Source of the DNA: Deinococcota bacterium
GTDB lineage: Bacteria > Deinococcota > Deinococci > Deinococcales > Thermaceae
Direction: 5' to 3'
Length of the DNA: 64,000 nt
Assembly: GCA_041695225.1 (NCBI GenBank)
Contig: JBGFRI010000005.1
Location: forward strand, 37,272 to 101,271
Position numbers and translations under genes: made by a program. The notes beneath the pieces were generated by a model. That model did not search any database and had not been told where the DNA came from. It saw only the letters and a program-made list of their open reading frames with translations. Positions 13,728 through 46,751 of the stretch are shown one piece after another. The number at the start of each line of letters is the position of its first letter. Positions within the stretch are counted from its first letter, which is position 1.

Positions 13728-13940
13728 GGCTTTAGCTTAGTACAAACCCGGGCTCGCTTTTGTAGGTTCGATTGCCAGGCAGGATGGGTTGGGTGGCGGC
13801 TAATCGGACGTAGGGCCTACGGATTTGTCCTCTGCTTTGCCTGTCCTGCCCTGCAATACTTGGCCAACCGGGATATTTGTAACCTGCTTGGCATCTTAGG
13901 CTGGTCGTATTGCTAGAATGTGCAACACGGGGTCGTCATA

Positions 13941-14915
13941 GTGAAACTCTTAGATAAATACGGGCGAATCATCAAAGACTTGCGGCTTTCGGTCACGCCG
14001 CGCTGCAACCTGCACTGCCTCTACTGTCATCCCCAGGGCTTTGAACAGCCCGAACCCCCTGGCGTCATATCGGTCGAAGAGACCCGCCAGTTTATAAGCG
14101 CCATGCAACTCTTGGGCCTGGAATCGGTGCGTTTTACTGGGGGCGAGCCGTTAATTCGTAAAGAACTACCCGAGATGATTGCTGTGGCACAGGAGCTGGG
14201 TATTCCCGATATCGCCATCACCACCAACGGCCTGCTGTTCAAGCGCAAGGCCAGGGAGCTGCTAGCCGCCGGTCTCAAGCGCATCAATCTCTCCATGGAC
14301 TCCGTTACCCCTGAGGTGTTCAGGACCATGACCCGTGGCGGCGAGGTAAAAAGAGTCTGGGAGGCTATCGAAACCGCCTGGGAACTGGGTCTGGTGCCAG
14401 TAAAAATCAACGCGGTGATGATTCGTGGCATGAACGATAAAGAGGTTATTCCGTTGGCCTCGCTCTCGCTAGACAGGCCTTTAGAGGTGCGCTTTCTGGA
14501 GTACATGCACCTTGATAACTCTAACCCCCAGCTCTACCAGCAACGCTTCATTGCCGGGGCCGAGACCAAAGCCAAAATAGAGGCCCACTTTGGCCCGCTG
14601 GACAAGGTCGAAAACGATCCCACCGCCCCTGCACGGCTCTATAAGATTCCTGGCGCAGTAGGCAGCATTGGCTTTATCAACCCTGTCGCCGAACCATTCT
14701 GTTCTAAGTGCTCCCGCCTGCGCCTGACCTCCGACAAAAAGATCCGCCCTTGTCTCTTAACCGACCTCGAGCTGGATATCGCCTGGGCCTTCAAAGCCCC
14801 TAACCCAGTTGAGGCTCTGGTAGACGCTATTCTGCTGGCCACCGACCGGAAGCCCGCCTTCGGCAACACCCTCCCCACCCTGCGCGAGCGGGTGATGGTC
14901 GGAATCGGAGGGTAG
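13941..14915 (+). CDS. moaA: GTP 3',8-cyclase MoaA
   Basis: LDKYGRIIKDLRLSVTPRCNLHCLYC, FTGGEPL, CSKCSRLRLT...PC, terminal GG. Confidence 0.93.
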   Translation: MKLLDKYGRIIKDLRLSVTPRCNLHCLYCHPQGFEQPEPPGVISVEETRQFISAMQLLGLESVRFTGGEPLIRKELPEMIAVAQELGIPDIAITTNGLLFKRKARELLAAGLKRINLSMDSVTPEVFRTMTRGGEVKRVWEAIETAWELGLVPVKINAVMIRGMNDKEVIPLASLSLDRPLEVRFLEYMHLDNSNPQLYQQRFIAGAETKAKIEAHFGPLDKVENDPTAPARLYKIPGAVGSIGFINPVAEPFCSKCSRLRLTSDKKIRPCLLTDLELDIAWAFKAPNPVEALVDAILLATDRKPAFGNTLPTLRERVMVGIGG

Positions 14916-36500: not shown

Positions 36501-37334
36501 ATGAACGAAACCACTGCCAAGCAGTCTGCACCTCTGTTGGGTGCAGCCATGCCCATTCGCTCAATCGCCGCTCACCGCGACTGGCTGCTGGAGGAAGGCG
36601 GGCGCGACCTGGAGATACAGGACAGTTTTCATGCACGGGCGCTGGACAGCGACTGGGCGCCACTGGTAGCCCAGGCCAGGACTGCGCTGGACGGTTATGC
36701 CGGGAGGCTGGGCATCCACGGCCCCTACGACGGCCTGTCCATTGCCAGCACCGACCCGGCGGTACAGCAGTTTGTGGCGGGGCGCTACCTGAGGGCGCTG
36801 GAGTTTGCCGCGGCGCTGGGTGCAACTCACATGGTAATCCACAGCCCCTTCTTGTTTTTTGGTCATCCACAGGTGGCTCACTCACCGGAAAACGGGCTGG
36901 CGCAGGAGCTCGAGGCCGCCCATCAGACCCTGGCCAGCGTACTCTCGGTAGCCAGCGGCCTGGGCCTGACCCTGGTGATTGAGAACATCTGCGACACCAA
37001 CCCCGCCCCCCTGCTGGAGCTGGTGCGCTCCTTTGACTCCCCCTGGGTTCGGCTCGGCCTGGATGTCGGACATGTACATCTGATGCAGCGCATTGGCGGC
37101 CCCACCCCCGACGCATGGGTGCGCCAGGCCCGGAGCCTGTTGGGGCACCTGCACCTGCAAGACAACGATGGAACCTACGACTATCACTGGAACCCGGGCC
37201 AGGGCGGGGTCAACTGGTGGGCATTGTTCGCTGCACTGGCCGAGACTGCTGGCGCCCCCCGGCTCATCCTGGAAACCAAAGGCTCGGTGCTACCTGCTGC
37301 ACACTGGCTGGCCAGGCAGGGCTTTGCTCGCTAA
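36501..37334 (+). CDS. Xylose-isomerase-like / AP-endonuclease-2 TIM-barrel metalloprotein
   Basis: IHGP, IHSP, IENI, LDVGH, HLHLQDN, DYH, LET: endonuclease IV-type metal-ligand pattern. Confidence 0.8.
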   Translation: MNETTAKQSAPLLGAAMPIRSIAAHRDWLLEEGGRDLEIQDSFHARALDSDWAPLVAQARTALDGYAGRLGIHGPYDGLSIASTDPAVQQFVAGRYLRALEFAAALGATHMVIHSPFLFFGHPQVAHSPENGLAQELEAAHQTLASVLSVASGLGLTLVIENICDTNPAPLLELVRSFDSPWVRLGLDVGHVHLMQRIGGPTPDAWVRQARSLLGHLHLQDNDGTYDYHWNPGQGGVNWWALFAALAETAGAPRLILETKGSVLPAAHWLARQGFAR

Positions 37335-37582
37335 GGCATTCAGGACCAAGGCGGGCCGGATGCCAGGACCAGGGGAAAAGTGGTCAGACGGTTGCGATTT
37401 CTCTGTCCTGACGCAGCACAGGTCTGGCCTGCGCTGACCGCTGCTTGACACAGGCAAAATATACATTGGTCTGTGCAGATATTAGCCAGCCGGAAGCCCG
37501 GCGCTCAGGGCCCGGAGTATACCCAGTATCCCGAACCATTCGCCGGCCAGCAAGACTCAACCAGCCCCTGTGGAGGTTTGCC

Positions 37583-38017
37583 GTGGCAGAGGCGCTAGAC
37601 CAGGGCGCTATCCTGAGCCTGCTTTGCCGGGCGCCCGCACCGGCGGTAAAAGCTCTGGCCGATCAGATCCTGCCCACCCTGGCCCAGCAGGGCAGCCTCG
37701 AGGTGGTGCATAACCGCACCGGGCTGGTCATGCTGCCCTACCGCGATACCGTTCAGGGGGTCTTGTTTCACCTGGGCGAGGCGCTGATGGCCGAGGGACA
37801 GGTGCGGCAGGCCGGGTTTACCGGCTACGGGGCATGTCTGGGACGCGATCTGGAACAGGCCCTGGCGGTGGCACTGCTCGATCTGGCCGTGCAGCAGGGG
37901 GTGGGCCTGGACAAAATTCAGCCCTTTCTGGCCGAGGAGTCGCTGCGCCAGCAGGCCGAGCAAGACCAGTTGCTGCGCAAGGTAGAAGCTACCCGGGTGC
38001 AGATGGAGACCTTCTGA
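37583..38017 (+). CDS. phnG: C-P lyase subunit PhnG
   Basis: GGAGG + GTG; RTGLVMLPYRD...FHLGEALMAE...KVEATRVQMETF; TGATG overlap with phnH. Confidence 0.85.
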   Translation: MAEALDQGAILSLLCRAPAPAVKALADQILPTLAQQGSLEVVHNRTGLVMLPYRDTVQGVLFHLGEALMAEGQVRQAGFTGYGACLGRDLEQALAVALLDLAVQQGVGLDKIQPFLAEESLRQQAEQDQLLRKVEATRVQMETF

Positions 38018-38556
38018 TGGCCCCTGTCCAGACCCCCCTCGAGGCCCGCACCCAGGCCAGCTTCCGCGCCATGACGCAGGCCCTGGCCTACCCCGGCCAG
38101 CTTTTTCCGCTGCCCGAAAGCCCCCAGCCACTGTTTTTGCTGGGCGAGGTGCTGGCCGACCAGGAGACCCGCTGCTACACCCCCGATACCGACTTACTGC
38201 GGTTGCTGCGGGATACCGGGGCGCGCCTGGCAGAACCGGCGGAGGCCGACTACCTCTTCTTCCCCAGGGTGGAGGAGGCCAGCCTGGCCCAGATTGCCCT
38301 GGCCCGGCGTGGCGAGCTGCTCTACCCCGACCGCGCCGCCACCCTGGTGCTGGGCGTGAGCGCCAGCGGCCCGGCCCGTCGCTGGTCTGGTCCTGGCATC
38401 AAAGGGGAGCAGCTGGTCAGGCTGGGTGGGCTGCCCGAAGAATTCTGGCGACTGCGCCAGCAGGCCGTGCACTACCCGCTGGGCTGGGATGTGTTTTTTG
38501 TGCTGGGAAGCCAGGTGCTGGGGCTGCCCCGCACCACCAGCGTGGAGGTGAGCTAG
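38017..38556 (+). CDS. phnH: C-P lyase subunit PhnH
   Basis: QASFRAMTQALAYPG, YPDRAATL, SGPGIK, YPLGWD, GLPRTT. Confidence 0.9.
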   Translation: MAPVQTPLEARTQASFRAMTQALAYPGQLFPLPESPQPLFLLGEVLADQETRCYTPDTDLLRLLRDTGARLAEPAEADYLFFPRVEEASLAQIALARRGELLYPDRAATLVLGVSASGPARRWSGPGIKGEQLVRLGGLPEEFWRLRQQAVHYPLGWDVFFVLGSQVLGLPRTTSVEVS

Positions 38557-39651
38557 ATGGCCTATGTTGCAGCCAGAGGCGGTGAGCAGGCCATCCAGGA
38601 AGCCGAGCGGCTTTTCGCCGAGCTACGGGGCGGGCTGAGCCCGGGGCGGGTTTTGGCCGTGCAAGAAGCCCTGCCTTACCTGCTAGACCGGGTGATGGGC
38701 GAGGCCTCGCTTTATGCCCCCGAGCTGGCCGCCCTGGCCCTGGCCCAGACTGGGGGCGAGCTTTACGAAGCGGTGCTGCTGCTGCGGGCCTACCGCACCA
38801 CCCAGCCCCGCCTGGGCTATGCCCAGCCGGTGGAGCAGGACCAGCTTCTCACCCTGCGCCGCATCTCGGCCGCCTTCAAAGACCTGCCAGGTGGGCAGGT
38901 GCTGGGCCCTACCCTGGACTACTCCCACCGGGTCTTGCGGCTGGAGGTGGTCAAAAACGGTGCAACCCTGCTCGAGCAGGCTAGTCTGGCCCAGCAGCCC
39001 GCCCCGCCCCATTACCCGGCCCTGGCGGCCTGGCAGCGCCAGGCCGGCCTCTTGCCCGCCCACACGCCCGATCAGACCCCGCTGGACGAGATACCCGACC
39101 TGACCCGCGAGCCGCTCTTGTTCCCGGCGCCCAGAGCCCATCAGCTTCAAGGGCTGGCCCGGGGCGATACCGGCGGCATTCTGACCCTGGGCTACGCCGA
39201 TATGCGCGGCTACGGCATCAGCCACCCCACCATCAACGAGGTAAGGCTGGGCGAAGCCGAGGTGCGGCTCTGCCACCCTGGCACCGGGTCAGTTTTCAGC
39301 GCGGGGCGGGTACGGGTCTCGCAGGCCGAGATTGTGAGCAAGTTTGCCGGCTCTGCCGAGAAGCCCGAGCTCGAGCTGGGCTTTGCCGCTACCCTGGGCT
39401 GGAACGAGGTCAAGGTAATTGCCGCGGCCATGCTCGAGCTGAACATGCGCTCCCCCGAGCCGCACCCCGCCCATACTGCCGAGTTTGTGCTCTACCACAC
39501 CGAGCCGGTAGAGGCCTCGGGCTTCTGTATCCACTACAAACTGCCGCACTACGTGACCTTCCAGTCGGCCCTCGAGGCCATGCGCCGGGTGCGCGAGCAG
39601 CCCGGGCCACCGCAGCAGGCCCAGGAAGAGCCCCAGGAGGTAGAGCCATGA
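38557..39651 (+). CDS. phnI: C-P lyase subunit PhnI
   Basis: MAYVAARGGEQAI, RRISAAFKDLPGGQVLGPT, HPTINE, GFCIHYKLPHYVTFQS. Confidence 0.95.
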   Translation: MAYVAARGGEQAIQEAERLFAELRGGLSPGRVLAVQEALPYLLDRVMGEASLYAPELAALALAQTGGELYEAVLLLRAYRTTQPRLGYAQPVEQDQLLTLRRISAAFKDLPGGQVLGPTLDYSHRVLRLEVVKNGATLLEQASLAQQPAPPHYPALAAWQRQAGLLPAHTPDQTPLDEIPDLTREPLLFPAPRAHQLQGLARGDTGGILTLGYADMRGYGISHPTINEVRLGEAEVRLCHPGTGSVFSAGRVRVSQAEIVSKFAGSAEKPELELGFAATLGWNEVKVIAAAMLELNMRSPEPHPAHTAEFVLYHTEPVEASGFCIHYKLPHYVTFQSALEAMRRVREQPGPPQQAQEEPQEVEP

Positions 39652-40568
39652 AACTGGCCGACCTGGTCCAGCCCTGGCAGGACCACAGCTACGCCTTCTT
39701 AGACCAGTCGGCGAAGCGCGAACTGCGCCGCAAGATTCTCAAGGCCATCGCCCTGCCCGGCTACCAGGTACCCTACGCCAGCCGCGAGGTGCCCATGGCC
39801 CGGGGCTGGGGTACGGGGGGCCTGCAGGTCACCCTGGCCCTGGTGGGCCCTGGCGATGTGCTAAAGGTGATTGACCAGGGGGCCGACGACTCGGTCAATG
39901 CCGCCAGCCTGCGCCGCTTTGTGGCCCGCATGACCGGGGTCAAGACCACCACCGATGCCCTGGCTGCCACCATTATCCAAAGCCGCCACCGCATTCCCGA
40001 GGAAATTCTGCAAGAAGGGCAGGTGCTGGTCTTGCAGGTGCCCGACCCCGAGCCGCTGCGGTCGGTGGAGCCCAACATCTCCCAGGCCCGCCAGATGCAC
40101 GCCGATGCGGACTACGGGCTGATCTGGCTCAAGCTCTACGAGCAGCTGGTGCGTTACCGGCGGATCATCCAGGGGGCCAGCTACCCGGCGCTGGTGCATG
40201 GGCGCTACGTGATGAGCCCCAGCCCGATCCCCCGCTGGGACCTGCCCAAGCTGCACCAGGCCAAAAGCCTGACCCTGCTCTCGGCCGGGCGCGAGAAGCG
40301 GCTCTACGCGGTGCCTCCCTATACCGAGGTGCGGCCCCTGGCCTTTGACGACGTGCCCTTCCAGGTCGAGGATCAGCGGGCTTTTGCCTGTTTTCGCACC
40401 GGGGTGCGCCACAAGTTTTTGAACGAGCTGCCGCAGGACGACGGCTCGGCGCTCTACGAGCTTTCCGACTCGGGCTATGGCGAGAAGATTCTGCGCCAGG
40501 CCGCAACCGGCCCTACCTACTTCGACCAGCAGGGGAGGTTTTACCATGACGGCTACCTGCGCGACTGA
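39648..40568 (+). CDS. phnJ: PhnJ homologue lacking three of four conserved cysteines
   Basis: KAIALPGYQVPYASRE, GWGTGGLQ, IDQGADD, QSRHRIPE, SPIPRWD, GREKRLYAVPP; C-terminal CFRTG...YELSDSGYG. Confidence 0.93.
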   Translation: MKLADLVQPWQDHSYAFLDQSAKRELRRKILKAIALPGYQVPYASREVPMARGWGTGGLQVTLALVGPGDVLKVIDQGADDSVNAASLRRFVARMTGVKTTTDALAATIIQSRHRIPEEILQEGQVLVLQVPDPEPLRSVEPNISQARQMHADADYGLIWLKLYEQLVRYRRIIQGASYPALVHGRYVMSPSPIPRWDLPKLHQAKSLTLLSAGREKRLYAVPPYTEVRPLAFDDVPFQVEDQRAFACFRTGVRHKFLNELPQDDGSALYELSDSGYGEKILRQAATGPTYFDQQGRFYHDGYLRD

Positions 40569-41361
40569 GCCGCTTCTGCCGCCAAAGCTGGTTAGTTTGC
40601 AGCCGCTCTTGCGGGCCGAGGGGCTGTACCGCCGTTACGGGGCGGTAAGCGCCCTGGAAAACGTTTCGCTCGAGGTCTACCCCCGCGAGGTACTGGGGGT
40701 GGTGGGCGAGAGCGGCTCGGGCAAGAGCACCCTTTTGCGGCTTTTGAACCTGGAAGAGACCCCCGATGCCGGGGTGTATAACCTGGAGCTGGACGGGTAT
40801 CGGGAGGCCAACCTGTTCGCCCTGGACCGCTACGCCCGCCGCGAGCTGCGGGTGCGGCATATCGGCATCGTCTACCAGAACCCCTACCTGGGCCTGCGTA
40901 TGCGCAACACCTCCTCGGGCAATGTGGCCGAGCGGCTGGTGTTGGGTGGCGAGCGCAACTTTGCCCGGCTGCGCCAGGTGGCCCAGAGCTCGCTGGCAGC
41001 CTCGGAGTTCCCCTTGCAGAGGATGGACGCACCCCCCATTCAGCTTTCGGGGGGAATGCAGCAACGGGTGCAGCTGGCCAAGGCCATCGCCCTGCGGCCG
41101 GCCCTGCTGCTACTGGACGAGCCCACCACCGGGCTGGATGTCTCGGTGCAGGCCCTGGTGCTAGACACCCTGCGCCGGCTGCGCCGCGAGCTGGGGGTGG
41201 CCATGCTGGTGGTCTCGCACGACCTGGGGGTGATCCGCACCCTTTGTGACCGGGTGCTGGTGATGCGCCACGGGCAGGTGGTGGAGAGCGGCCTGGTAGA
41301 CCAGGTGCTCGACGACCCCCAGCACCCCTACACCCAGCAGCTGGTGCACGCCAAACTCTAA
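40546..41361 (+). CDS. phnK: C-P lyase ABC-type ATPase PhnK
   Basis: GESGSGKST, SSGNVAERL, LSGGMQQR, DEPTTGLDVSVQA, DDPQHPYTQQLV. Confidence 0.92.
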   Translation: MTATCATEPLLPPKLVSLQPLLRAEGLYRRYGAVSALENVSLEVYPREVLGVVGESGSGKSTLLRLLNLEETPDAGVYNLELDGYREANLFALDRYARRELRVRHIGIVYQNPYLGLRMRNTSSGNVAERLVLGGERNFARLRQVAQSSLAASEFPLQRMDAPPIQLSGGMQQRVQLAKAIALRPALLLLDEPTTGLDVSVQALVLDTLRRLRRELGVAMLVVSHDLGVIRTLCDRVLVMRHGQVVESGLVDQVLDDPQHPYTQQLVHAKL

Positions 41362-41370
41362 GGGCCCGCC

Positions 41371-41976
41371 ATGAAAAGACTCAGCCCCCATCCCACCATT
41401 CACCCTACCGCAGTTATCAAAAGCTCCAGGCTGGGGGCCTGGTGCGAGGTAGCACAAGAGACCAGTATTGTGGAGTCGGAAATTGGCGATTACAGCTATC
41501 TGATGCAGGGCTGCCAGTTGATTTACACTCAGGTGGGAAAGTTCTGCTCCATTGCCTCGTATGTGCGGCTCAACCCCGGCAACCACCCCTTAGACCGGCC
41601 CACCTCGCACCACCTTACCTACCGCGCCGCCCAGTATGGCCTGGGGCAGGACGAGCAGGCCTTTTTCGAGTGGCGCCGCTCAACCCCCGTGGTCATCGGG
41701 CACGATGTCTGGATCGGCCACAACGCCACGGTAATGCCCGGGGTGAGCGTGGGCCACGGGGCGGCCATTGGCGCGGGGGCGGTGGTAACCAAAGATGTGG
41801 AGCCTTACACCATCGTGGTGGGGGTTCCGGCCAGGCCGCTGCGCCTGCGCTTTAGTCCCGAGATCATCGAGGGCTTGCAGCGCATCGGCTGGTGGGACTG
41901 GCCGCACGAGCTGCTCAAGGAGCGCCTGGCCGACCTGCGAGGGAGCACCCAGGCTTTTGTGGAGAAGTACGCATGA
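41371..41976 (+). CDS. Hexapeptide-repeat acetyltransferase, phosphonate-cluster type
   Basis: IGDYSY, GKFCSIASYVRLNPGNHP, IGHDVWIGH, GAGAVVTKDV. Confidence 0.88.
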   Translation: MKRLSPHPTIHPTAVIKSSRLGAWCEVAQETSIVESEIGDYSYLMQGCQLIYTQVGKFCSIASYVRLNPGNHPLDRPTSHHLTYRAAQYGLGQDEQAFFEWRRSTPVVIGHDVWIGHNATVMPGVSVGHGAAIGAGAVVTKDVEPYTIVVGVPARPLRLRFSPEIIEGLQRIGWWDWPHELLKERLADLRGSTQAFVEKYA

Positions 41977-42755
41977 GGCTGGGCCTGATTGCCGACGTTC
42001 ACGGCAACCTGCCGGCCCTTCGGGCTGTGCTGGATGAGCTAAAAAGACTGAAGGCCGAGCTGGTGCTGTGCGCGGGGGATCTGGTGGCCTACGGGGCCTT
42101 TCCCAACCAGGTGATTGCGCTGCTGCGCCAGCAGGCCATCCCCTGTGTGCTGGGCAACTACGACCAGGCCGCCGCCTGGGACCTGAGCACGGCCAGCTCC
42201 CGGCCCAGCAGCCCGCGCACCGAGCCGCTCAAACGGGCCGCGCTGGCCTGGGCGCAGCAGCAGCTTGGTGAAGATAATCGGCGGTATTTGCGCGGCCTGC
42301 CCTGGCAGATGGAGTACCGGTTCGACCAGCAGACCTACCGCCTGTTACACGCTGGGCCAGAAAAGCTCGATGAGAGCTACAGCCCGCAAGACCAGGCTGG
42401 CCTCTGGCGGCTAGCCTCGAGCCTGAGGGCCGACGTGGTAGTGCTGGGCCACACCCACCAGCCCTTTGCCCAGCAGGTGGGAAAGACCCTGTTCATCAAC
42501 CCCGGGGCAGTCGGGCGCAGCCTGGACGGCGACCCCCGGGCCTCGTTTGCCCTGCTGGAGACCCAGAGTATGAGACTTGAGTTTTTTCGTATTTCCTACG
42601 ACCTCGAGGCCGCAGTGCAGGCTGTGCTAAACAGCGGGATGCCGCGCGAAATCGCCACCCTGCTGCGCTTTGGCCTGCGCCGCATTGAAGATGCTCCCCA
42701 GGGGGTGCGCGTAGCGCATGGAGTGGGTGATGCAGTGGTCGAGGATTTGGAGTGA
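41973..42755 (+). CDS. Calcineurin-like metallophosphoesterase (YfcE/MJ0936-like)
   Basis: DVHGN, GDLV, GNYD, LLHAG, GHTH, NPGAVG. Confidence 0.88.
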   Translation: MRLGLIADVHGNLPALRAVLDELKRLKAELVLCAGDLVAYGAFPNQVIALLRQQAIPCVLGNYDQAAAWDLSTASSRPSSPRTEPLKRAALAWAQQQLGEDNRRYLRGLPWQMEYRFDQQTYRLLHAGPEKLDESYSPQDQAGLWRLASSLRADVVVLGHTHQPFAQQVGKTLFINPGAVGRSLDGDPRASFALLETQSMRLEFFRISYDLEAAVQAVLNSGMPREIATLLRFGLRRIEDAPQGVRVAHGVGDAVVEDLE

Positions 42756-42798: not shown

Positions 42799-43488
42799 GT
42801 GAAAGTACTGGAAGTGCGTGACCTTGCTAAGCGCTTTATCCTGCACCAGACCGGCCGGGAGATTCCAGCGTTCAGTAGCCTCAGCTTCGATCTGGCCGCA
42901 GGCGAATTCTTGCTGGTGGCCGGGCCTAACGGGGTAGGGAAGTCTACCCTGTTGCGCTCGCTTTTTCGCACCTACCGGCCCAGCGCTGGCTCGGCCTGGT
43001 TTTACTCGAATTATGGCCGGGTTGACCTGGCCCGCGCCGCCGACGTGGATATTGCCCTGCTGCGGCGGGAGGAGATCGGGATGGTCAGCCAGTTCCTGCG
43101 CCCCCGCCCGCGGGTGACTGCCCTGGAACTGGTGGCCGAACCGCTGCTGGAGGCCGGGCAGCAGGATGCTTTTACTACTGCCGAGCGCTTTTTGCGAGCC
43201 TTTGCCCTCAAACCCGAGCTGTGGGCTGCTTATCCCAGCACCTTTTCCGGCGGGGAGCAGCAGAAGGTCAACCTGGCCCGGGCCCTGATCCAGCCCCGTC
43301 GCTTGCTGCTGCTAGATGAGCCGACAGCCAGCCTGGACCACCAGACCCGCGAGGCCCTGGTGGCGCGGCTGGCCGAGCTGAAAGCAGAGGGTACCGCCCT
43401 GGTAGGAGTCTTTCACCACCCCGAGGAAGTGGAGCACTTGATTGACCGTGAGCTGCGCCTGGAGGTGCTGGAGTATGGAGCTAGGTGA
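42799..43488 (+). CDS. phnL: C-P lyase ATPase PhnL
   Basis: KRFILHQ, GPNGVGKST, STFSGGEQQKVN, LLLDEPTASLD, GVFH. Confidence 0.92.
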   Translation: MKVLEVRDLAKRFILHQTGREIPAFSSLSFDLAAGEFLLVAGPNGVGKSTLLRSLFRTYRPSAGSAWFYSNYGRVDLARAADVDIALLRREEIGMVSQFLRPRPRVTALELVAEPLLEAGQQDAFTTAERFLRAFALKPELWAAYPSTFSGGEQQKVNLARALIQPRRLLLLDEPTASLDHQTREALVARLAELKAEGTALVGVFHHPEEVEHLIDRELRLEVLEYGAR

Positions 43489-44695
43489 TACCACCCTCGA
43501 CCATGTCACTTCCCGTCCATTGTGGCTGAGTGAGCTGCGACTGGTGCTGCCGGACCGGGTGCTGGAATCGGCCTCGTTGCGCATCGAGGGTGGGCGGGTG
43601 GCCGAGGTGCGTGAAGGCCCGGCCCCCCACCCCGACCTGCACTGTGCGGGCCTGACTGCGATACCTGGCCTGGTAGATCTGCATGGCGATATGCTCGAGC
43701 GGGAGGTAGAGCCGCGCCCGGGCGCGCAGCTTCCCCTCGAGATGAGCCTGCTGGAGCTCGACAAGCGGCTGGCCGCAGCCGGCGTCACCACCGCCTACGC
43801 GGCCATCTCCTTCGCCGAGCATCGCCAGAAAGGCCAGATTCGCACCGAGGAACGGGCCCGCGAGCTGGTGCAGGGGGTTGCGGGCTTAAGAACCGGGCTG
43901 CTGGTGGACTTCCGGGTACACGCGCGATTCGACATAACCAACCCCCGCGCCGCCCCTGTGCTCACCGAGCTGCTGGGGGAGGGCCTGGTAGACATGGTCT
44001 CGCTCAACGACCACACCCCAGGCCAGGGGCAGTACCGCGACCTGGAGCACTATCTGGGCTTCATCGCTCGGTGGCGCGACCAGAGCCGCGAGGAAGTAGA
44101 AGCCCGCCTGCAAGAACGTCTGTTGCAGGCCAGGGACGTGCCGGTAGCCTGGGAGGTGGTAGCCGAGGTAGCCCAGCTTGCCGCCCAGAACGGGTTGAGA
44201 CTGGCCTCGCACGACGACGACACCCCAGCAAAAGTAGAGCTGGTACATAAGCTAGGGGCCAGCATCAGCGAGTTCCCGGTAACCAGGGAGGCCGCCCAGG
44301 AGGCCCGGCAGAGGGGCATGGCGGTGGTGATGGGCGCCCCCAACGCCCTGCGTGGGGGCTCGCTTGCGGGAAACCTGTCGGCCCTCGAGGCCCTGCAGGC
44401 GGGGCTGCTGGACATCCTGGCCGCCGACTACTACCCTGCCGCCATGCTCCAGGCCGCCTGGACGATTGCTGCACGCGGCTATCTGTCACTTCCGCAGGCC
44501 ATCGGCCTGGTTACCCTGAACCCGGCCCGCGCAGTAGGGCTGCACGACCGCGGGAGCCTGGTTCCAGGTCAACAAGCCGACCTGGTCTTGTTGGAGACCA
44601 GCCCACGGCTGCGGGTGGTAGGTACTTTGCGCCAGGGGCGTTTTATCTACTGGGCAGGGCACAAAATGCTGCGCTCTGCGGTGGCTGCTTGGTGA
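43475..44695 (+). CDS. phnM: Alpha-D-ribose 1-methylphosphonate 5-triphosphate diphosphatase PhnM (copy 1)
   Basis: PGLVDLHGD, SLNDHTPGQGQY, ASHDDDT, MGAPN, DYYP. Confidence 0.92.
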   Translation: MELGDTTLDHVTSRPLWLSELRLVLPDRVLESASLRIEGGRVAEVREGPAPHPDLHCAGLTAIPGLVDLHGDMLEREVEPRPGAQLPLEMSLLELDKRLAAAGVTTAYAAISFAEHRQKGQIRTEERARELVQGVAGLRTGLLVDFRVHARFDITNPRAAPVLTELLGEGLVDMVSLNDHTPGQGQYRDLEHYLGFIARWRDQSREEVEARLQERLLQARDVPVAWEVVAEVAQLAAQNGLRLASHDDDTPAKVELVHKLGASISEFPVTREAAQEARQRGMAVVMGAPNALRGGSLAGNLSALEALQAGLLDILAADYYPAAMLQAAWTIAARGYLSLPQAIGLVTLNPARAVGLHDRGSLVPGQQADLVLLETSPRLRVVGTLRQGRFIYWAGHKMLRSAVAAW

Positions 44696-45101
44696 TGCCA
44701 GATCACGGGCAACAATACCGCTTGCGAGGCTGCCAGTACGCAAGGTCGCGAGCAAAAGCCCGCCTCGGTGGGCTGCAATACAAAAATACTTCAGGTTTAT
44801 GGCCGTCATCGCCAGGGGCCTAAAGCCCTTCAAGGGTGGAAAAAGGCGGCGACGCCCGGCCCAATGGCGGCGGAGGGCTCGCCGGATGGTGTGGCGGCTC
44901 GGGGTGAGGCCTGTTGGGACCTGGTGTTAAGAGCACACTGCCCAGGGCTTTTGCCCACTTGCCCCGAGGGAAATTCGACTCCGATGGTCTACGGCAGATC
45001 CGACGCTGCGCTTTGACCCGGGTATTTGTCAGGCCGAGGTAATAGGTCTGATGACGCTGGACTCACGGCCTCCCGTTAACTTTCTTGCGGGAGGTAGCCC
45101 T

Positions 45102-45878
45102 TTGATTCACCTCGAGTCTGTCACCCACCGCTTCGCCAACGGTACCCAGGCCCTGGCCGAGATCACCCTGGAGATGCACCCGCATCACTTCACCGTGCTT
45201 ATTGGGCCATCCGGCGCGGGCAAGTCTACCTTAATGCGCGTGATCAACGGGCTGATTCGCCCCAGTGAAGGGCGGGTCTGGGTTGGAGGCCAGGAGATCA
45301 CCCGCGCCCCCGCTGCGGCCGCGCGGAAGGCCCGACGCGAGATCGGGATGGTCTTCCAGCAGTTTAACCTGGTGAAGCGCCTCACCGCGCTGGACAACGT
45401 CTTGCTGGGCCGCCTGGGCTACCGTGCCATGTGGCGCAGCCTGACCCGGGCCTTCCCCAAAGCAGAAGTGGAGTTCGCCTTTCACCTGCTGGAACGCGTA
45501 GGCATGGCCGACTACGCCTGGCAGCGGGCCGATACCCTGTCCGGTGGCCAGCAGCAACGGGTGGGTATTGCCCGGGCCCTTGCCCAAAAGCCCAGGGTAA
45601 TCCTGGCCGATGAGCCCATATCGGCCCTCGACCCCAAAAGCTCGGAGCAGGTGATGGCAATTTTACGCTCCATCCGCGATCAGGACGGCCTGATGGTCAT
45701 CGCCAACCTGCACTTTCTGGGCGCCGTTCGCGAGTATGCCGACCGGGTGATCGGGCTGCAAGCGGGCCGGGTGGTCTTCGATGGCAGCAATGGCGACCTT
45801 ACCGATGGCGCTGCGCGCATGCTCTACTACGGCGAAAACCCATTACCAACTGACTCACCACAACTGGCTATCTCATAG
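45102..45878 (+). CDS. phnC: Phosphonate ABC transporter ATPase (copy 1)
   Basis: [48 protein letters not shown]. Confidence 0.92.
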   Translation: MIHLESVTHRFANGTQALAEITLEMHPHHFTVLIGPSGAGKSTLMRVINGLIRPSEGRVWVGGQEITRAPAAAARKARREIGMVFQQFNLVKRLTALDNVLLGRLGYRAMWRSLTRAFPKAEVEFAFHLLERVGMADYAWQRADTLSGGQQQRVGIARALAQKPRVILADEPISALDPKSSEQVMAILRSIRDQDGLMVIANLHFLGAVREYADRVIGLQAGRVVFDGSNGDLTDGAARMLYYGENPLPTDSPQLAIS

Positions 45879-45887
45879 GAGGAAGAC

Positions 45888-46751
45888 ATGAAACGTTTGC
45901 TCAGCCTGATAGTTCTTTTGTTTGGCCTGGCCCTGGCCCAGCCCAGCCCAGCCCCCGGGGTCTGCCCCGCCGAGATCCGCTTCGGTATCCTGCCAGCCGA
46001 TGAGGCCGCGGTACGGTTGCGTTTTAATCCTCTGTTCGAGTACCTGCAGCAGCAGACCGGCAGCCGCTTCCGGGTTACGGTGGGGGCAGACTATGCCGCC
46101 ATCATTGTGGCCATGGCCCATGACCGCCTGGATCTTGCATGGTTTGGGCCAGAAGCCTACGTCCAGGCCGCCAGGCAGACCCGGGTAATACCGCTGGTCA
46201 TAGCGGACCGGGTAAATGCTGGCCGCTCCTATCACAGCCTGATCCTGGTGCGGGCCGACTCGCCCTTCCGCACCCTCGAGGATCTGCGCGGTAGAAACTT
46301 TGCCTTTGTTGACCCCAACAGCACCAGCGGCTATCTGATCCCGCTGGTTCATTTTCTGCGTGAGGCCCGCATACGTCCTGAAGACCACTTCCGCCAGGTG
46401 GTGTTCGCAGGTACCCACCCCGCCGCCATTCTGAGCGTTCTCAACGGCAGGGTAGACGCCACCGCTACTGCAGACACGACCCTGAGCCGGATGATTGCAG
46501 CGGGCCAGGCCAGACGGGAAGATTTCCGAGTCATCTGGACCTCACCCCCTATTCCTAACAGCCCCGTTACTGCAAGCGCACGGCTTTCTGTACCTTGCCG
46601 CGCCCTCATAACACGGGCTTTTCTGAGTCTGCGTGACCCCCGGGTGCTGGAAGGTTTTGGGGCCACGCGCTTTGTAGTGGTAACTGACGCCGAGTATGCC
46701 ATGGTGCGCGAGGCTGGTCGGTTGCGCGACGAGCTGGCCAGGCAGCGCTAG
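45888..46751 (+). CDS. phnD: Phosphonate ABC transporter substrate-binding protein (copy 1)
   Basis: Signal ALAQ; FAFVDPNSTSGYLIP, GTH, PPIPNSP. Confidence 0.9.
   Translation: MKRLLSLIVLLFGLALAQPSPAPGVCPAEIRFGILPADEAAVRLRFNPLFEYLQQQTGSRFRVTVGADYAAIIVAMAHDRLDLAWFGPEAYVQAARQTRVIPLVIADRVNAGRSYHSLILVRADSPFRTLEDLRGRNFAFVDPNSTSGYLIPLVHFLREARIRPEDHFRQVVFAGTHPAAILSVLNGRVDATATADTTLSRMIAAGQARREDFRVIWTSPPIPNSPVTASARLSVPCRALITRAFLSLRDPRVLEGFGATRFVVVTDAEYAMVREAGRLRDELARQR

Follow-up and report, generated by a model that had tools for sequence, protein, structure and literature searches.

The carbon-phosphorus (C-P) lyase is the main bacterial route to phosphorus from unactivated phosphonates, glyphosate included; by the accepted view, aerobic methane from methylphosphonate comes from it as well, and phnJ is in wide use as a marker of this methane production. 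In the scheme drawn for Escherichia coli, a [4Fe-4S]/S-adenosylmethionine (SAM) cluster on PhnJ gives rise to a radical at Gly32, and this leads to a Cys272 thiyl that attacks phosphorus. The four cysteines of PhnJ, arranged as CX2CX21CX5C, have been treated as conserved, and even as diagnostic (PMC11978286, PMC9947105, PMC12413358). Because the Fe-S site lies about 30 Å from Gly32, the seat of the proposed glycyl radical, the authors of the structures determined by cryo-electron microscopy described the mechanism as "an unresolved conundrum" (PMC9947105). Here we examine a phn operon in a stretch of 64,000 nucleotides from a Deinococcota bacterium of the family Thermaceae (contig JBGFRI010000005.1, positions 37,272 to 101,271; the whole stretch is hereafter called the window), whose PhnJ carries only one of these cysteines. 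The gene is the following.

39648..40568, + strand: phnJ of the Cys-less type, 306 amino acids (aa), with the C-terminal tail TYFDQQGRFYHDGYL

The product is a member of PF06007 (418.4 bits against a cut-off of 25, over profile positions 2-272 of 275). In the HMMER alignment, its residues 13-278 are matched to residues 7-272 of E. coli PhnJ (PDB 4xb6_D) with E = 2.6e-89. C248, the sole Cys among the 306 residues, pairs with C241 and is the only Cys of the CX2CX21CX5C motif that is present; the positions of C244, C266, and C272 are occupied by T251, L272, and G278, respectively. The four codons are TGT (40389-91), ACC (40398-400), CTT (40461-63), and GGC (40479-81). An earlier reading of the letters alone (the first-pass annotation) had described a PhnJ with a single Cys, in which the other three were replaced by Thr (ACC), Leu (CTT), and Gly (GGC), and the alignment and the codon positions bear this out. 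Neither the three-Cys ligand set of the [4Fe-4S] cluster (C241/C244/C266) nor the thiyl-radical Cys272 was found in the protein. Two of the three replacement codons are two bases away from any Cys codon, and a base-calling error is thus unlikely. Other functional residues are retained: the equivalent of Gly32 is G38 in LPGYQ, and that of His108 is H114 in QSRHR. The first-pass annotation had listed these two residues and the PhnI His pair in HYKLPH as kept, and all of them are present. Since the three-Cys site and Cys272 are missing, the mechanism of E. coli cannot run here, as had also been concluded before; to judge from the residues, a part for a PhnJ-bound [4Fe-4S]/SAM cluster or for a Cys272 thiyl in the cleavage step is excluded.

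An AlphaFold2 model of the window PhnJ has a mean confidence score (pLDDT, predicted local distance difference test) of 89.2, and the C-terminal domain and the extra tail score 89-96. When the model was compared by Foldseek with the PhnJ chains of 7z19, 7z18, and 4xb6, template-modelling (TM) scores of 0.92-0.95 and root-mean-square deviations of 1.6-1.9 Å over about 270 columns were obtained. According to the model, the PhnJ fold, with its central insertion domain and its C-terminal domain, is present, and, although its cysteines are gone, the domain that holds the four-Cys (Cys4) site in E. coli is predicted to be retained, with a confident fold. The former metal site of this domain appears to be a metal-free structural core, made up of Cys, Thr or Ser, Leu, Ile, or Val, and a small residue.

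The first-pass annotation had left room for strain-specific decay, in which close relatives would keep all four Cys; close and distant relatives were found to share the loss. The best 120 homologs in a search of 5.8 billion proteins (70-99% identity), which come from Deinococcus, Anaerolineae, Chloroflexales, and Roseilinea, are all without the three Cys. In a survey of one genome per GTDB species, the identities to the window PhnJ were bimodal: C244, C266, and C272 are missing from every one of 28 loci at 63-74%, while CX2CX21CX5C is intact in each of 52 loci at 59% or less. The hosts of the 28 Cys-less loci are Chloroflexota, Rhodobacterales, Devosia, Maritalea, Sinorhizobium sp. CB7, Mesorhizobium escarrei, Synechococcus sp. 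H55.6, and a Deinococcus metagenome-assembled genome (MAG). PhnJ is so conserved that clustering at 50% identity collapses the family into a few clusters and fragments, and a search there was uninformative. In an IQ-TREE phylogeny of 104 PhnJ, 51 Cys-less and 53 canonical sequences are split by a single branch with a support of 100/99, and the window PhnJ falls in a Deinococcus-like sub-branch. FastTree phylogenies of PhnI, PhnK, and PhnM from the same operons show the same split (support 99-100). Thus, the whole operon is a separate, co-evolving lineage. Named members of this clade are Thermus thermophilus HB8 (plasmid pVV8, NC_017767.1) and Synechococcus sp. JA-2-3B'a(2-13), that is, OS-B' (CP000240.1), whose PhnJ, ABD01166.1, is of the Cys-less type.

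When the clade is taken as a whole (at least about 63% identity), the same three Cys are lacking in 240 of 240 members across at least five phyla, and the loss is therefore not a matter of chance. The C244 position is Thr or Ser in 100% of these members, the C266 position is Leu, Ile, or Val in 99%, and the C272 position, where Ala, Gly, and Met are among the commonest residues, is never Cys. The equivalent of C241 is Cys in 95% and Asp in 4%, and some members have no Cys at all. His108 and S273/D274 (the Ser-Asp between E. coli positions 266 and 272) have their equivalents in 100% of the members, and Gly32 in 99%, with three Ala exceptions. The pairwise ratios of nonsynonymous to synonymous substitution rates (dN/dS) against four relatives lie at 0.09-0.27 when the whole gene is taken and at 0.06-0.40 within the C-terminal domain. 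In the relatives' loci that were inspected, phnJ of the clade always lies within a complete phnGHIJKLM + phnCDE operon. The expectation put forward in the first-pass annotation, that Cys-less PhnJ should form a clade with dN/dS below 1 and conserved synteny, is thus borne out. These results show that the window phnJ is intact and under selection, and that it belongs to a large sister lineage within PhnJ.

Some variation was seen on and around Gly32. The Cys-less sequences of the alphaproteobacterial branch have Cys, not Tyr, next after Gly32 (PGCQ; locus L010, in our own numbering of the loci, and 28 others; 29 of 240). In three Synechococcus sequences from Hunter's Hot Springs (H55.6, locus L031, 8001-8855, and two related ones), the Gly32 equivalent itself is Ala (AIPAYQ); OS-B' has IPGHQ. 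If the H55.x strains still use phosphonates, the Gly32 radical is not essential in the clade. In addition, the T. thermophilus protein WP_152428252.1 (545 aa, named PhnJ) clusters with PhnJ (293 aa) and PhnK (255 aa); either a fusion of PhnJ with PhnK or a read-through in the annotation is probable.

In Deinococcota, the phylum of the window, PhnJ was found in 42 of 364 genomes, of which 39 have it at 64% identity or more (the Cys-less type) and 3 at 53-58%; the Cys-less lineage is the main PhnJ type in this phylum. In an even sample of 401 Chloroflexota, 28 genomes carry PhnJ, 8 at 69-75% and about 19 at 52-58%, with no full-length match between these ranges; the Cys-less type makes up about 30% of the PhnJ-bearing Chloroflexota. 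The 42 PhnJ found in an even sample of 300 Alphaproteobacteria were all canonical, and the Cys-less type is rare there. It is the only type in the window genome (where the PhnJ described here is the sole PhnJ), D. koreensis, 4 Chloroflexota, the Deinococcus MAG, and Synechococcus H55.6. Both types were found side by side in the Pseudomonadota MAG J06614_7 (L011, 1-12500), in which a canonical set (phnI, J, K, L, a PhnN-like gene, and M) and a complete Cys-less set (phnG, H, I, J, K, L, M, and C) stand in tandem on one strand, about 7 kb apart. The window PhnJ is 68-71% identical to PhnJ of the same genus, as against 78-82% to that of another family of the phylum (Deinococcus-like), and horizontal transfer within the phylum is the probable origin of the operon.

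The window phnJ lies between phnI and phnK in one co-directional operon, in the order phnG, H, I, J, K, hexapeptide transferase, metallophosphoesterase, phnL, M, C, D, and E, with many stop/start overlaps; phnG, H, L, and M and the phnCDE transporter thus belong to the same operon. The other genes are listed below, with open reading frame abbreviated as ORF and ATP-binding cassette as ABC.

37583..38017, + strand: phnG; GTG start inferred from a relative with 90%-identical PhnJ (the mechanical ORF starts at 37445)
38017..38556, + strand: phnH; its start overlaps the phnG stop
38557..39651, + strand: phnI; Zn-site His pair H326/H331 (E. coli H328/H333), Cys324 in GFCIHYKLPH
40546..41361, + strand: phnK, ABC ATPase; its start overlaps the phnJ end
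41371..41976, + strand: hexapeptide-repeat transferase of the phosphonate-operon family TIGR03308 (283.6 bits, cut-off 201.65)
41973..42755, + strand: calcineurin-like metallophosphoesterase of the YfcE family, a candidate PhnP replacement
42799..43488, + strand: phnL, ABC ATPase
43520..44695, + strand: phnM; start approximate (the mechanical ORF begins at 43442)
45051..45878, + strand: phnC-type ABC transporter ATPase; the start may be 45102
45888..46751, + strand: phnD-family periplasmic binding protein, PF12974
46760..47590, + strand: phnE-type permease

The phnG, H, I, K, L, and M genes all have their full length and a match to their families, and they share 81-91% identity with their counterparts in a close relative, in agreement with the first-pass annotation, in which they had been said to show no lesions. 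None of phnF, phnN, phnO, and phnP was found in the window operon, and PhnN was not found anywhere in the 2.83-Mb genome of the window. The transferase and phosphoesterase genes (41371-42755) are inserted as a pair between phnK and phnL, with a stop/start overlap at 41973-41976. The same insertion is seen in locus L091, and the phosphoesterase alone in D. koreensis; the operon metallophosphoesterase is conserved among the Deinococcus-like relatives. Just upstream of phnG, at 36501-37334 (+), there is a xylose-isomerase-like TIM-barrel gene (PF01261 AP_endonuc_2, 92.8 bits), and the neighbourhood of the phn cluster contains a member of the AP_endonuc_2 family in D. koreensis (L004, 820-1638) and in T. 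thermophilus pVV8 (L085, 15598-16362) as well. In a relative with 85%-identical PhnJ, an Xre-family/RES toxin-antitoxin pair is located between phnL and phnC (L090, 6513-7342).

The PhnD-family protein of the window scores 120 bits with PtxB and 105 bits with HtxB, the phosphite and hypophosphite binders, versus 92 bits with E. coli PhnD. The Tyr of the PtxB motif PQYPW is replaced by Ser (PNSPV). We take this Tyr to be an aromatic cap that limits PtxB to phosphite, in a residue numbering that is not reconciled with that of the published papers; the replacement suggests a ligand larger than phosphite. GpxB, a glycerol-phosphate binder of the PhnD family (PMC12718374), was also considered as a clue to the substrate and was set aside, as no link to these operons was found.

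To see whether the missing Fe-S site has a substitute elsewhere, every alignment column of PhnG, H, I, K, L, and M was compared across 33 Cys-less and 52 canonical operons. Neither a gained Cys cluster nor a relocated Fe-S site was found in these six proteins. The only clade-enriched Cys occurs in PhnI, two residues before the Zn-ligand His (V326 in E. coli, C324 in the window): it is present in 30 of the 33 Cys-less versus 3 of 51 canonical operons, and Ala takes its place in the Thermus/Synechococcus branch. In most of the clade, this residue may serve as an additional ligand of a metal or as a thiol of the active site. As a relocated catalytic thiol it was rejected as a general answer, because of the Ala in the branch just mentioned, to which OS-B' belongs. 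The total number of Cys in PhnG, H, I, and J, counted over the called genes, is 1 in T. thermophilus HB8, 2 in OS-B', and 6, scattered, in the window; on these sequences, a Cys-ligated [4Fe-4S] cluster on the PhnGHIJ cores is not credible.

A radical source outside the core was also looked for. No CxxxCxxC ORF of at least 150 aa was found near 32 of the 33 Cys-less operons, and the single match was an antisense ORF. The window genome encodes 13 radical-SAM proteins: 11 housekeeping ones (MoaA, MiaB, HemW, a PA0069-family protein, MtaB, RimO, LipA, a TIGR04053 protein, MqnE, RlmN, and MqnC), one methyltransferase for ribosomally synthesized and post-translationally modified peptides (RiPPs), and one unclassified protein. 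None of the 13 belongs to the activase family, and a glycyl-radical activase of the PflA/NrdG type was not found in this genome (TIGR02494, best 23 bits versus a cut-off of 174), which is 92% complete, so that the absence is not absolute. The unclassified protein was considered as a trans-acting initiator and was rejected, as it is present in only one of the seven other genomes that have Cys-less PhnJ only. The only radical-SAM gene in the window encodes MoaA (13920-14915, +; TIGR02666, 320 bits); it is located 25 kb upstream of the phn operon and is unrelated to it.

As for function, the cyanobacterium OS-B', the cluster of which is a bare phnCDEGHIJKLM, provides the physiological evidence. 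Gomez-Garcia et al. (2011) reportedly observed that OS-B' releases methane or ethane from the matching phosphonate in light. Secondary citations state that this strain grows on phosphonates (PMC5955973, PMC9600594). A marine Rhodobacteraceae fosmid rescues the growth of E. coli on methylphosphonate (PMC3840354); it could not be assigned to either PhnJ type. In a full-text literature search, no published description of a Cys-less PhnJ was found.

We regard it as rather probable that the operon still encodes a functional machine for phosphonate utilisation, in which the cleavage takes place without a PhnJ-bound [4Fe-4S] cluster or a Cys272 thiyl. In such a machine, PhnI (along with PhnG, PhnH, and PhnL), together with PhnM, would produce 5-phosphoribosyl-1-phosphonate, as happens in E. 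coli. C-P cleavage would remain the task of the PhnGHIJ core, probably at the fully conserved three-His (His3) metal site between PhnI and PhnJ, and the operon metallophosphoesterase would replace PhnP, acting on the cyclic phosphate product. The conservation of this phosphoesterase would fit such a product. A further-reaching possibility, to which we give somewhat less than an even chance, is that the cleavage of unactivated C-P bonds (methylphosphonate to methane) is achieved throughout the clade without an Fe-S cluster, a SAM-derived PhnJ radical, or a thiyl Cys, by a new and possibly oxygen-tolerant chemistry at the PhnI-PhnJ His3 site. If this is true, the His3 site, not the Cys4 site 30 Å from Gly32, may be the real catalytic centre of the E. 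coli enzyme as well.

Several points weigh against the reading of the operon as a functional phosphonate machine. The activity at the His3 site is an inference. The phnN, phnP, and DUF1045 genes are mostly missing from the Cys-less operons; the product or its fate may therefore differ. Among the alphaproteobacterial carriers of the Cys-less type, a canonical phnJ is present as well in 18 of 22, a hint that one type is not the equivalent of the other. That OS-B' carries only the Cys-less type was checked solely in its sister strain, Synechococcus H55.6, which has a single phnJ. No biochemically studied member of the clade was found in the literature, and OS-B' is the only one with reported physiology. 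Kamat et al. (2011, 2013) reportedly found that the Cys residues and SAM are needed by the E. coli enzyme in vitro, and a non-radical route to methane from unactivated methylphosphonate is not known.

Three other explanations were weighed. The idea that the gene is a product of strain-specific decay, a pseudogene, or a sequencing error may practically be dismissed: it is refuted by the relatives, which carry the same substitutions throughout the 240 members and at least five phyla, and it is contradicted by the dN/dS of 0.09-0.27, the open frame, the confidently predicted fold, and the two replacement codons that stand two bases from a Cys codon; nothing was found in its favour. A more serious possibility, although an unlikely one in our estimation, is that the ribosylation steps of PhnI and PhnM are kept and that the substrate has a heterolytically cleavable P-X bond, PhnJ being a metal-assisted cyclase and not a radical enzyme. 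Phosphite (P-H), phosphonates with a stabilised carbanion as leaving group, and P-O compounds are the candidate substrates. The double carriers among the alphaproteobacterial genomes, with a complete canonical operon that stands in tandem in L011, suggest a non-redundant role; the higher scores of the window binding protein against PtxB and HtxB than against E. coli PhnD, the frequent lack of phnN, phnP, and DUF1045, and the absence of any visible radical source point in the same direction. However, the Tyr of the PtxB motif is Ser in that binding protein, Gly32 is kept in 99% of the members, and an ATP-costly machine of seven proteins is hard to justify where simple hydrolases or PtxD suffice. 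The first-pass annotation had proposed a non-radical machine for P-O or P-H substrates; the proposal keeps this small share of probability, but it sits badly with the growth on alkylphosphonates that secondary citations ascribe to OS-B', apparently a carrier of the Cys-less type only, and with the alkane release reported for this strain.

The remaining explanation, raised in part in the first-pass annotation, is that the radical is made in trans, the Gly32 radical being installed by a radical-SAM activase, or by an Fe-S partner, encoded elsewhere, and that another residue replaces Cys272. The retention of the Gly32 equivalent (99% of 240) and of the C241 equivalent (95%), the PhnI Cys beside the Zn-site His, and the Cys beside Gly32 (PGCQ) in the alphaproteobacterial branch can be cited for it. 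Nevertheless, no radical-SAM gene was found near any of the 33 operons, the single CxxxCxxC match being an antisense ORF, and the window genome yielded no glycyl-radical activase; its radical-SAM proteins are housekeeping ones, the RiPP methyltransferase, and the sporadic unclassified protein. The retained residues are not constant, either: the PhnI Cys is Ala in the Thermus/Synechococcus branch including OS-B', Gly32 is Ala in Synechococcus H55.x, and C241 is changed to Asp in about 4% of the members, some members being without any Cys. A thiyl Cys would, moreover, still be missing. The proposal of a separate activase is thus not upheld, and we consider a radical made in trans improbable, more so than the P-X substrate. 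A phosphonate-utilising machine that dispenses with the PhnJ-bound cluster and the Cys272 thiyl is the reading that we prefer.

The Cys-less lineage, being under strong selection in complete operons, constitutes a natural test of the C-P lyase mechanism. Thermophile cores such as that of T. thermophilus HB8, with a single Cys, could be purified aerobically and studied structurally, and a long-standing mechanistic question becomes directly testable in tractable strains. There is also a practical side. In some studies, the four "conserved" cysteines are taken as proof of PhnJ function (PMC11978286), and some phnJ primers target the cysteine-bearing region (PMC12413358). Such checks and primers would miss or misjudge this lineage, the main type in Deinococcota and about a third of the PhnJ in Chloroflexota.

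Finally, the window locus can be placed beside the known systems. White and Metcalf (2004) reportedly described a pair of C-P lyase operons, htx and phn, in Pseudomonas stutzeri; this would be a precedent for two operons with different roles in one genome, as in the alphaproteobacterial carriers, but it is a lead only. The phn operon of T. thermophilus HB8 pVV8 belongs to the same lineage (66% identity) and the same phylum, and it has a metallophosphoesterase and a sugar-phosphate isomerase/AP_endonuc_2-type gene nearby; it differs in being plasmid-borne, in belonging to the short-tail sub-branch, and in having one Cys in the whole PhnGHIJ core. The OS-B' cluster shares with the window the Cys-less lineage (C266 is Ile and C272 is Met) and a complete operon. 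Its PhnJ is about 65% identical to that of the window and belongs, with a short tail, to the Thermus/Synechococcus sub-branch; the PhnI has Ala in place of Cys324, and the cluster has no accessory genes. E. coli PhnJ (PDB 4XB6, 7Z15-7Z19; EC 4.7.1.1), the C-P lyase for alpha-D-ribose 1-methylphosphonate 5-phosphate, which turns PRPn into PRcP and an alkane in a SAM-dependent reaction, has in common with the window protein the family PF06007 (about 51% identity), the fold (TM 0.92-0.95), Gly32, His108, the FDD motif that contacts PhnK, and the operon partners PhnG, H, I, K, L, and M. In contrast to it, the window protein has Thr, Leu, and Gly at C244, C266, and C272, neither the [4Fe-4S] site nor the thiyl Cys, and an extra C-terminal tail of 25-30 residues, while the operon lacks phnF, phnN, phnO, and phnP and has the hexapeptide transferase and the YfcE-type metallophosphoesterase. 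The Cys-less C-P lyase is a real, conserved, and apparently undescribed variant, which is without the defining radical-SAM features and keeps the remaining features of the family.

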